64,000 bases of DNA, from NCBI RefSeq assembly GCF_044324875.1, contig NZ_CP172185.1; one strand, given 5' to 3'. Positions 21,849 to 24,597 of this stretch are shown piece after piece. The translations under genes and the position numbers were made by a program. Origin of the DNA: Escherichia coli. Lineage in GTDB: Bacteria > Pseudomonadota > Gammaproteobacteria > Enterobacterales > Enterobacteriaceae. The notes under the pieces were generated by a model, which worked only from the letters and a program-made list of their open reading frames with translations, was not told the origin of the DNA and searched no databases. The first letter of the stretch is position 1; every line of letters starts with the position of its first letter.

Positions 21849-22092
21849 AGCGCAATAACCTTACGTTGTTTTTATAAAAACTGTTATAAGTGCAAAATGG
21901 CATCTGAATCGATCGCAGTTTGGCATTCGAATCGATCATGATTTGGCATCCATCTCCGATCACAGTTTGGCATCACAATCGATCACGATTTGGCATGCTT
22001 CCGATCATTGATTGGCATCCTGCCAGTCACTCCGGGAATTAACTCTTTTCACCACAGTCTCCATTGCCGTGTTTAAACCAGTGGAGACGTCA

Positions 22093-23658
22093 ATGTCCAG
22101 AAAGAGAAAATCCAGGAGCACTATGGAAACCTGTTTTAAGATCCTTCAGCTCAAGTTCGACAAGAAGCTGACTAACCGTTGTATCGGACTGACGTTACAC
22201 ATCAGCGCCTCAACCGTTTTTGAGGTTCTTGCCCGCTTCAAAGCCTCTTCTCTGTCATGGCCATTACCTGCTGATATATCCCATGACACGCTGGAGAAAC
22301 TCATTTTTCCGCCCAAAGACACCTTTGCATCAGAGCTTGTAATGCCTGACATGTTGTACTTCGATACGGAAATGAGAAAACCAGGTGTGACGCGGCAACT
22401 GTTGTGGATGGAATACAAGGCACAGGCGGGTAACAAAGCGATGGGATACTCGCACTTCTGCCGTTGCTACCGGGAGTGGAAAAAAACGCGACGTCTCTCC
22501 ATGCGCCAGGAGCATCGTGCCGGCGAAAAGCTTTTTATCGACTTCTGTGGTCCTACGGTTCCTGTTATTAATCCGGACACCGGTGAGATACGCCGCGTGG
22601 CAATCTTCGTGGCCGTAATGGGGGCGTCCAACTATACCTACGTTGAAGCGTGCGAAGGTCAGGACATGATGTCATGGTTAAATGCCCACAGCCGTTGCCT
22701 GACCTTCCTGGGCGGCGTACCGAAGCTGCTCATCCCCGATAACCTCAGAAGCGCAGTGAAAAAGGCCGATCGATATGAGCCTGTCATCAACGACAGTTAT
22801 CAGGCACTGGCTGAGCACTATGGCACGGTTATCATCCCGGCCCGACCACGCAAACCTAAAGATAAACCAAAAGCAGAAAACGGCGTCCTCATCGTTGAAC
22901 GATGGCTTCTTGCCCGCATCCGTAATGAAACCTTCCACACGCTCAGGGCGCTGAATGCGCGCCTTAGGGAGTTACTGACAGACATGAATAACCGGCCAAT
23001 GAAGGGGTACGGCAATCAAACCCGTGCAGAACGCTTCCGCATACTGGATGCGCCAGCACTCTCTCCGCTGCCTCTGGCACCTTATGAATACACGGAATAC
23101 AAAGCTGTGAAGGTTGGCCCTGACTACCACGTTGAATATGCCCGTCACTGGTACTCCGTTCCACACGAACTGGTCGGTCAGCGTCTGTCACTGAAGGCGG
23201 GGCAGTCGGTGGTACAGCTCTGGCACAAGGGGCAGTGTGTGGCGCAACATCCGCGCAGCACACATGAATATAAACACACAACCAATCCGCTTCACATGCC
23301 AGAGCGCCACCGGCAGCACGGGACATGGACACCGGAACGCCTGATCGAGCAGGGAAAACGTACGGGCCCGTCCACAGGCCGGGTGGTTGAATCCATGCTG
23401 AAGGCAAAACCCCATCCGGAACTGGCTTATCGTGCAGTTCTGGGGCTGCTGGCACTTCAGAAAAAATACGGCCCGGAACGGCTGGAAAAGGCCTGTTACG
23501 TTGCCCTGCACTATAACGCCCCTGACAGACGCTTTATCGACAATCTGCTGCGTCACCATCGGGAGAACCTGGAGCTTCCATTATCCCGCCAGGGCGAACA
23601 ACATCCGGCATATGCTTCAGAGCATGAAAACCTGCGTGGTCCGGGCTACTACCACTGA
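22093..23658 (+). CDS. istA: IS21-family transposase IstA
   Basis: ORF 22012..23658 trimmed to ATG 22093 (ggagacg SD-like sequence upstream); large transposase-sized protein, IstA-like by pattern; start could instead be ATG 22123. Confidence 0.8.
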   Translation: MSRKRKSRSTMETCFKILQLKFDKKLTNRCIGLTLHISASTVFEVLARFKASSLSWPLPADISHDTLEKLIFPPKDTFASELVMPDMLYFDTEMRKPGVTRQLLWMEYKAQAGNKAMGYSHFCRCYREWKKTRRLSMRQEHRAGEKLFIDFCGPTVPVINPDTGEIRRVAIFVAVMGASNYTYVEACEGQDMMSWLNAHSRCLTFLGGVPKLLIPDNLRSAVKKADRYEPVINDSYQALAEHYGTVIIPARPRKPKDKPKAENGVLIVERWLLARIRNETFHTLRALNARLRELLTDMNNRPMKGYGNQTRAERFRILDAPALSPLPLAPYEYTEYKAVKVGPDYHVEYARHWYSVPHELVGQRLSLKAGQSVVQLWHKGQCVAQHPRSTHEYKHTTNPLHMPERHRQHGTWTPERLIEQGKRTGPSTGRVVESMLKAKPHPELAYRAVLGLLALQKKYGPERLEKACYVALHYNAPDRRFIDNLLRHHRENLELPLSRQGEQHPAYASEHENLRGPGYYH

Positions 23659-23674
23659 CAGAAGGAACAACAGT

Positions 23675-24430
23675 ATGAGTGATAACCTGTTAAACAAACT
23701 GACCCAACTGAAACTCCCGGCGATGGCCGGGAGCCTGATACGGCAGCGGGAAACGCCTCAGACCTACGACGAACTGTCGTTCGAGGAAAGGCTGACGCTG
23801 CTGGTTGATGACGAGCTTCTGAGCAGGGAAAACAGCCGTGTGGCACGGTTGAGAAAAAATGCCGGCCTGAAATACCAGGCAACACCGGAAGGGCTGCGCT
23901 ATCCGGCCTCAAGAGGTCTGCGGGCTGAACAGATGAGAGAACTGCTGAACGGCCACTACATAACCCACAGGAAAAACCTGCTGATAACCGGTCCGACAGG
24001 ATGTGGCAAGAGCTGGATAGCCAATGCGCTGGGCGAACAGGCATGTCGACAGAAACACAGCGTCCGGTACTGTAGAACCGGGCGATTACTGGAACAACTG
24101 GCTCAGGGACGTGTTGATGGCAGCTGGCTGAAATATCTGAAACAGTTGCAAAAAATACAGGTTCTAATCCTGGACGATCTGGGGCTGGAACAGTTAAGTA
24201 ACGCCCAGTGTAATGACCTTCTGGAGCTCATAGAGGATCGTTACGGACAAAGCAGCACGATAGTGGTAAGCCAGTTCCCGGTAGATAAATGGCATGGTCT
24301 GATGGAGAACCCAACAACAGCAGATGCCATCCTGGACAGACTGGTACATAACTCACACCGAGTGGTCCTTCAGGGAGAGTCACTGAGGAAAAATCCCCCG
24401 GTAGTGGAAAGCAGCGAAAAAACGCGTTAA
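23675..24430 (+). CDS. istB: IS21-family ATP-binding helper protein IstB
   Basis: ORF 23432..24430 trimmed to ATG 23675 (aagga SD), 251 aa; Walker A GPTGCGKS and Walker B VLILDDLG; 16 bp after the istA stop. Confidence 0.85.
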   Translation: MSDNLLNKLTQLKLPAMAGSLIRQRETPQTYDELSFEERLTLLVDDELLSRENSRVARLRKNAGLKYQATPEGLRYPASRGLRAEQMRELLNGHYITHRKNLLITGPTGCGKSWIANALGEQACRQKHSVRYCRTGRLLEQLAQGRVDGSWLKYLKQLQKIQVLILDDLGLEQLSNAQCNDLLELIEDRYGQSSTIVVSQFPVDKWHGLMENPTTADAILDRLVHNSHRVVLQGESLRKNPPVVESSEKTR

Positions 24431-24597
24431 AAAGCGGTAGAAAAAGTTAAGTTCCCGGTTGATCGAATGGATGCGAATCGCTGATCGGACTTCGATGCCA
24501 ATCCGTGATCGAATAGAGCGGAATACGCAATAAGTACAGAGGTCATAACTGGTATGACCTCTTCAGTCTGGCAAAAAATTGCCACTATGCAAATTAA

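Follow-up and report, generated by a model that had tools for sequence, protein, structure and literature searches.

Positions 21891-24529 of a 64,000-nucleotide stretch of the Escherichia coli chromosome (contig NZ_CP172185.1, assembly GCF_044324875.1; the whole stretch is termed the window) very probably constitute an intact and probably transposition-competent insertion sequence (IS) of the IS21 family, a known element of the ISSso4 type that entered the DNA between fadM and ybaV recently and only in this lineage. The element lies on the plus strand, measures 2,639 bp from 5'-TG to CA-3', encodes the DDE transposase IstA and the AAA+ helper ATPase IstB, and is flanked on both sides by the identical pentamer ATAAG. 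Here we report its anatomy, boundaries and target-site duplication, the corresponding empty site, its family membership and its spread over many sites and replicons, and we discuss its mechanism of transposition and its consequences for fadM. It is a known and ordinary mobile element whose novelty is limited to the insertion site; nothing in its make-up changes IS21 biology, and the value of the analysis is mainly for annotation and strain typing, which gain precise ends, an assignment at the level of a name and a defined duplication.

Boundaries of the element and its target site

The limits of the element were set by BLAST against 5,426 complete E. coli genomes (RefSeq), the survey set for all genome counts given below; near-identical copies align from approximately 21891 to 24529. 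The 5' end reads TGCAAAATGG and the 3' end reads GGAATACGCA, also given as ...GAATACGCA. Seven further copies residing in other contexts, and aligned at both ends, have the same first and last bases (they lie in dtpD, a serine ammonia-lyase gene, tssD, a phage capsid gene, a DUF4942 gene, repB and a tet(X4) plasmid), and the boundaries are invariant in eight independent genomic contexts. In the window the ATAAG pentamer occupies 21886-21890 to the left of the element and 24530-24534 to its right. Six of the seven further copies are bordered by A/T-rich duplications of their own, 5 or 6 bp in length (TTATAC, AAAGT, GTAAAG, AAAGC, ATTAAT and ATCAAA), and a copy from Shigella sonnei has a duplication of 7 bp; IS21-family duplications measure 4-8 bp. 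The copy on the plasmid pD2-tet(X4) (NZ_JBXSPU010000002.1, referred to as L004) is identical to the window element at all 2,639 positions; it adjoins a frameshifted traG.

Deletion of the element together with one ATAAG rebuilds the empty site, and many E. coli genomes match the resulting 500-bp fadM-ybaV junction with 100% identity; strains 7/2 and YDC107 are examples of close relatives in which the site is empty. The exact ends and the ATAAG duplication are thereby defined against IS-free E. coli sites, a comparison that had been proposed in a preliminary description of the window made from the sequence alone. That description had assigned the element to 21891-24593; its left limit is correct, and its right limit is 64 bp too far, the true end being 24529. 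The last 64 bp of the longer interval consist of one copy of the duplication and native fadM-ybaV intergenic DNA. The same description had the element parting fadM from ybaV, and this is the arrangement that we find: fadM (21450-21848) and ybaV (24598-24969), both on the minus strand, lie on either side of it.

The DNA next to the left junction has a peculiarity of its own in the form of a perfect 14-bp A/T-tract palindrome, GTTTTTATAAAAAC, which occupies 21868-21881 in the 5' region of fadM and is separated by 4 bp from the target pentamer. Alignment with K-12 traces the palindrome to a 12-bp allele that is not present in K-12. The allele is a natural one, as the empty site that carries it is found with 100% identity elsewhere and about 99 records or genomes match at 99% identity or above. 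IstB chooses its targets by DNA shape, and one may speculate that the A/T-tract palindrome made this site an unusually good, bendable target.

The transposition genes

The istA gene, encoding a DDE transposase of 511 amino acids, extends from 22123 to 23658 on the plus strand, if the start is taken that the NCBI Prokaryotic Genome Annotation Pipeline (PGAP) assigns in an identical copy, and istB, encoding an AAA+ helper ATPase of 251 amino acids, occupies 23675-24430 on the same strand. The istA stop codon lies at 23656-23658 and the istB ATG at 23675; as the preliminary description had it, istB begins 16 bp after istA and both genes are uninterrupted. The Walker motifs that it had read in IstB are likewise present as described: Walker A, GPTGCGKS, comprises residues 106-113 (nucleotides from 23990) and Walker B, VLILDDLG, residues 163-170 (nucleotides from 24161).

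Both proteins are recognised by the family-specific hidden Markov models of NCBIfam, IstA by NF033546 (transpos_IS21) with 284.6 bits against a cut-off of 160 and IstB by NF038214 with 257.8 bits against a cut-off of 200, and because of these scores the two long open reading frames (ORFs) are far beyond chance. In IstA, Pfam identifies an rve domain and Mu-transpos_C_2, which is the C-terminal beta-barrel of Mu transposase; for IstB it returns IstB_IS21 (E = 1.2e-60). The only relatives with solved structures are IstA of IS5376 (8q4d and 8b4h; E = 6.6e-14) and IstB of the same element (8q3w; E = 3.7e-24). Residues D140, D206 and E252 of the window IstA, in the numbering of the 511-residue protein, align with D124, D187 and E233, the catalytic residues of IS5376 IstA (PMC10122671); the triad is therefore intact.

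The first ORF of the program-made list begins at a TTG at position 22012. The likely translation start is either the ATG at 22123, PGAP's choice on the identical copy, or the ATG at 22093, which would add ten residues and give a protein of 521 amino acids. The two ATGs are in frame, ten codons apart and each preceded by a Shine-Dalgarno sequence, and both start codons with both Shine-Dalgarno sequences are kept in relatives of 96% and 82% identity. By analogy, the two starts may correspond to the transposase/cointegrase pair of IS21, whose members differ by eight N-terminal residues (PMC10122671).

The terminal repeats

The left terminal region (21891-22019, plus strand) begins with TGCAAAATGGCAT... 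and continues with five direct 17-bp repeats, CGATCNNNGNTTGGCAT, which are the presumed IstA binding sites. They start at 21910, 21933, 21957, 21980 and 22002 and are hence spaced at 23, 24, 23 and 22 bp; a spacing of 23 bp has been described for the ends of IS21-family elements in work on IS5376 (PMC10122671). The right terminal region (24449-24529, minus strand; terminus ...GGAATACGCA) contains the repeats in inverted orientation, with two copies at 24495-24511 and 24471-24487 and a degenerate third at approximately 24449-24465. All seven matches to the 17-bp motif in the 64 kb fall within the ends of the element, and none of 100 shuffled sequences reached seven matches. A relative with no more than 82% overall identity has an almost unaltered right end.

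This relative, which resides on the Enterobacter plasmid CP057783.1 (L013), is without one of the five 23-bp left-end repeats. Approximately six tandem 8-bp units (GTGCAAAA/GTACAAAA) precede its left terminus, at about 243-290 of the locus, and reiterate the tip of the IS.

The family-level reading given in the preliminary description, an intact istA-istB element of the IS21 family, is thus borne out by the NCBIfam and Pfam assignments, the homology to IS5376 including the DDE triad, the TG...CA termini, the subterminal repeats and the duplication. With the prototypes IS5376 and IS21 the element shares an IstA in which a Mu-type beta-barrel follows the DDE core, an AAA+ IstB, TG...CA termini, terminal sites reiterated at about 23 bp and 5-bp staggered integration. 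It differs from them in several respects: the sequence similarity of IstA and IstB to those of IS5376 is only remote, the window IstA is about 110 amino acids longer at its C-terminus than the 400-residue IstA of IS5376, and the left end has five repeats where IS5376 and IS21 have two.

Assignment to ISSso4

The preliminary description had left the name of the element open and had noted that its IstA is not IS100-like. On the strength of PGAP labels and of identity to a Shigella sonnei copy, the name can now be narrowed to the ISSso4 type rather than IS100 or IS21 proper. In the identical copy PGAP names the IstB protein (WP_001282653.1) 'IS21-like element ISSso4 family helper ATPase IstB' and the IstA protein (WP_045147483.1) 'IS21 family transposase'. 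The ISSso4 copy on the S. sonnei plasmid NZ_CP023646.1, in which both proteins have the ISSso4 label where in the window type only IstB does, is 2,638 bp long compared to 2,639 bp and is identical in its first and last 30 bp or so; its gene layout and ORF lengths (511 and 251 amino acids) match those of the window element. The two are 96.3% identical in nucleotide sequence, and the 98 differing nucleotides are evenly spread; the proteins are 97.7% (IstA) and 97.2% (IstB) identical, with 12 and 7 substitutions, respectively. Judged from these labels and the 96.3% identity, the element would be an ISSso4-type variant. In ISfinder practice an isoform has at least 95% nucleotide identity to the reference sequence, for which the 96.3% identity to the S. 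sonnei copy is a proxy. The window type has the appearance of a distinct, widely disseminated allele or isoform. IS100 of Yersinia shares the IS21-family architecture and is set apart by the labels, as the annotated near-identical copies are all ISSso4-family and none is IS100.

Distribution and the empty site

The fadM-ybaV junction is uninterrupted in 5,421 of the 5,426 genomes, and a left-junction probe found the IS at this site in none of them (0/5,426). The possibility, raised at the outset, that the same sequence might be present here in all E. coli was thereby checked; an empty site exists, and the reading as an IS21 insertion stands. As no other complete genome has the site occupied, the insertion must be very recent, and being unique among the genomes surveyed it could act as a lineage marker.

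The element itself is far from rare. Of the 5,426 genomes, 224 have full-length copies of 99.5-100% identity elsewhere, in up to 24 places per genome and in a further 392 plasmid places, and a full-length copy is carried by 232 PLSDB plasmids, most of them conjugative, from Escherichia, Salmonella, Shigella, Klebsiella and other hosts. The data document the ISSso4-type allele as a spreading element, found on many conjugative plasmids and in many places within single genomes. Because near-identical copies are so numerous on chromosomes and plasmids, have fresh duplications in different genes, and because the duplication in the window is perfect and the site is empty elsewhere, there is a strong circumstantial case that the element is currently active, from which we infer present-day mobility.

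A Shigella origin of the window was also considered and is unlikely, since E. coli genomes have the empty-site allele with 100% identity and the 64 kb contain only one IS.

Proposed mechanism of insertion

The events that created the insertion can be outlined by analogy with characterised IS21-family systems. IstA of IS5376 binds the repeated sites and, as a tetramer, brings the two ends into a synapse (PMC10122671), and IstB in the presence of ATP forms decamers that bend the target DNA and recruit and activate IstA for strand transfer (PMC11208146). The window IstA, which combines DNA-binding domains at its N-terminus with the DDE transposase core and a Mu-like beta-barrel, would likewise bind the reiterated 17-bp sites in both ends; an IstA tetramer would then synapse the ends and expose the terminal 3'-CA. 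IstB and ATP would assemble on the target DNA, bend it, and subsequently recruit and activate IstA. A strand transfer staggered by 5 bp, followed by repair, would give rise to the ATAAG duplication.

A consensus scan returned no sigma-70 promoter anywhere in the element, and the same scans also miss the native fadM promoter. By-hand inspection of the abutted right and left ends, which could form a junction promoter in the style of IS21, revealed no acceptable -35 element, and this idea was dropped. Across the occupied and the empty site the promoter scans returned only 8/12 matches, including a possible hybrid of a -35 element in the flank and a -10 element in the IS left tip that faces istA; we do not rely on these matches.

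Consequences for fadM

The left end of the IS is situated 42 bp upstream of the fadM ATG (21848), and istA and istB are transcribed away from fadM. On the far side of the element, 12 bp past the right duplication, the native fadM upstream DNA includes a palindrome resembling a FadR operator, AACTGGTATGACCTCTT (24547-24563), which is identical in K-12. It is the only match in the 64 kb to the FadR consensus aaCTGGTCnGACC(T/A)Gtt (PMC9329746) at two or fewer mismatches, with 0.06 matches expected. A full-text literature search with the operator core sequence returned irrelevant matches only. The distance between this predicted operator and the fadM ATG has become 2,698 bp, compared to 54 bp in the rebuilt empty site of the allele; in the occupied site no FadR operator adjoins the fadM coding sequence, and the operator-like site is itself intact. 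With the IS inserted 42 bp upstream of the ATG, the predicted operator and all native DNA upstream of it have been displaced from the gene by 2.64 kb.

In fad promoters the FadR site as a rule overlaps the -10/+1 region (PMC9329746), and because of this the native promoter of fadM, a gene of the FadR-repressed fad regulon, has probably been displaced as well. The suggestion in the preliminary description that the insertion may have displaced the fadM promoter is hence plausible, the only FadR-consensus operator in the window being located beyond the IS. We infer that fadM has most probably lost FadR-responsive expression and, with it, any part of its promoter that lies at or upstream of the operator. 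A consensus scan of the left end of the IS found no outward promoter on the strand facing fadM; on the antisense strand inside the IS there are several hairpins resembling terminators. Studies of fatty-acid degradation in this strain should take into account that its fadM is predicted to be without a contiguous FadR operator.

Alternative explanations

Several observations weigh against parts of the interpretation given above. With regard to the name, PGAP labels the window-type IstA with the generic 'IS21 family transposase', and it is the S. sonnei IstA that receives the ISSso4 label. The L004 plasmid copy has no target-site duplication and is flanked by ...ATTAAG and ACTTTC...; the missing duplication suggests a secondary rearrangement, for example a deletion caused by the IS or an event in which two copies recombined. 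As far as fadM is concerned, the consensus scans fail to detect the native fadM promoter in K-12 and in the rebuilt empty site, so they can neither place the promoter nor tell if the IS supplies one and carry little weight, and a weak outward or hybrid promoter may serve fadM.

The account of a recent, competent ISSso4-type insertion has to be weighed against readings in which the element is inert, old, part of something larger or misplaced. An element that is structurally intact could be a functionally dead relic, a fixed passenger with inactivating substitutions or devoid of expression. The lack of a consensus sigma-70 promoter in the element agrees with such a state, as does an entrapment study on an ISSso4-carrying plasmid in which no transposition of ISSso4 was detected (PMC9927407). 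Yet the element is identical to a plasmid copy over its entire length and 0-0.5% divergent from hundreds of copies elsewhere, its duplication is perfect, its DDE and Walker motifs are unimpaired, and in no other complete genome is the site occupied, which leaves the relic an improbable explanation. That the multi-copy nature of the IS, a classic source of misassembly, led to a repeat being misplaced at this locus is harder still to credit, because base-precise junctions with a 5-bp direct duplication are what transposition is expected to leave, and a collapsed repeat is not expected to leave them. We attach practically no probability to the notion that the IS is ancestral or site-specific at fadM-ybaV, a conserved feature of E. 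coli or a hot spot: no support for it was found beyond the adjoining A/T-tract palindrome, which could in principle attract IstB, the occupied junction is absent from the surveyed genomes with nearly all of them uninterrupted here, and other copies reside in genes as unrelated as dtpD, tssD, the phage capsid gene and repB. An equally negligible probability falls to a larger mobile unit, for instance a composite transposon or a genomic island, of which the element would form one end or some other part. IS21-family elements can form tandem repeats and cointegrates (PMC10122671), but the 64 kb contain one copy, and the flanks are collinear with K-12 up to the duplication, the only additions being the 2,639 bp and the repeat of 5 bp; for the window a larger unit is excluded.

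A further proposition concerns not the nature of the recent ISSso4-type insertion but its effect. The insertion may not be neutral: fadM, cut off from its operator and native promoter, would be silenced or become independent of FadR, and this rewiring would have been selected in the lineage, or else the palindrome would be a favoured target of IstB. We regard this as unlikely, albeit less so than any of the alternatives above.

Genomic setting

The window consists of ordinary E. coli chromosomal DNA; between acrR and yajC it is collinear with K-12 MG1655, to which it is 97-99% identical. The insertion has queC-fadM to its left and ybaV-ppiD to its right. Both adjacent genes are intact; fadM, collinear with K-12 b0443, encodes a long-chain acyl-CoA thioesterase III of 132 amino acids, and ybaV encodes a protein of 123 amino acids, its stop codon lying 68 bp from the right end of the IS. 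The only Rfam matches at gathering threshold in the window are the sraA small RNA and the 4.5S (signal recognition particle) RNA, at 30090-30185 on the plus strand and 9699-9795 on the minus strand, both expected in this region.

The window departs from K-12 at other places as well. About 126 bp of K-12 (438150-438275, between yajO and dxs) are absent from the window at 50630-50632, possibly, as a guess, a missing repetitive extragenic palindromic (REP)-type intergenic element. Between yajO and pgpA, positions 51621-53602 comprise about 2 kb not found in K-12, in which a single ORF (51851-53422, plus strand) encodes the sole protein, 523 amino acids with pentapeptide repeats; its match to the Salmonella type III effectors PipB2/PipB is weak and far below threshold (29.9 bits; cut-off 354). 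Lastly, about 690 bp between yajD and secF (60164-60851) are likewise not in K-12 and contain a gene for a ParD-family antitoxin on the minus strand (60459-60701; TIGR02606, 95.7 bits). An ORF of 104 amino acids (60185-60499, minus strand), which has no NCBIfam match, overlaps the ParD gene and extends downstream of it in the position of a toxin gene, and together the two look like a small type II toxin-antitoxin insertion.

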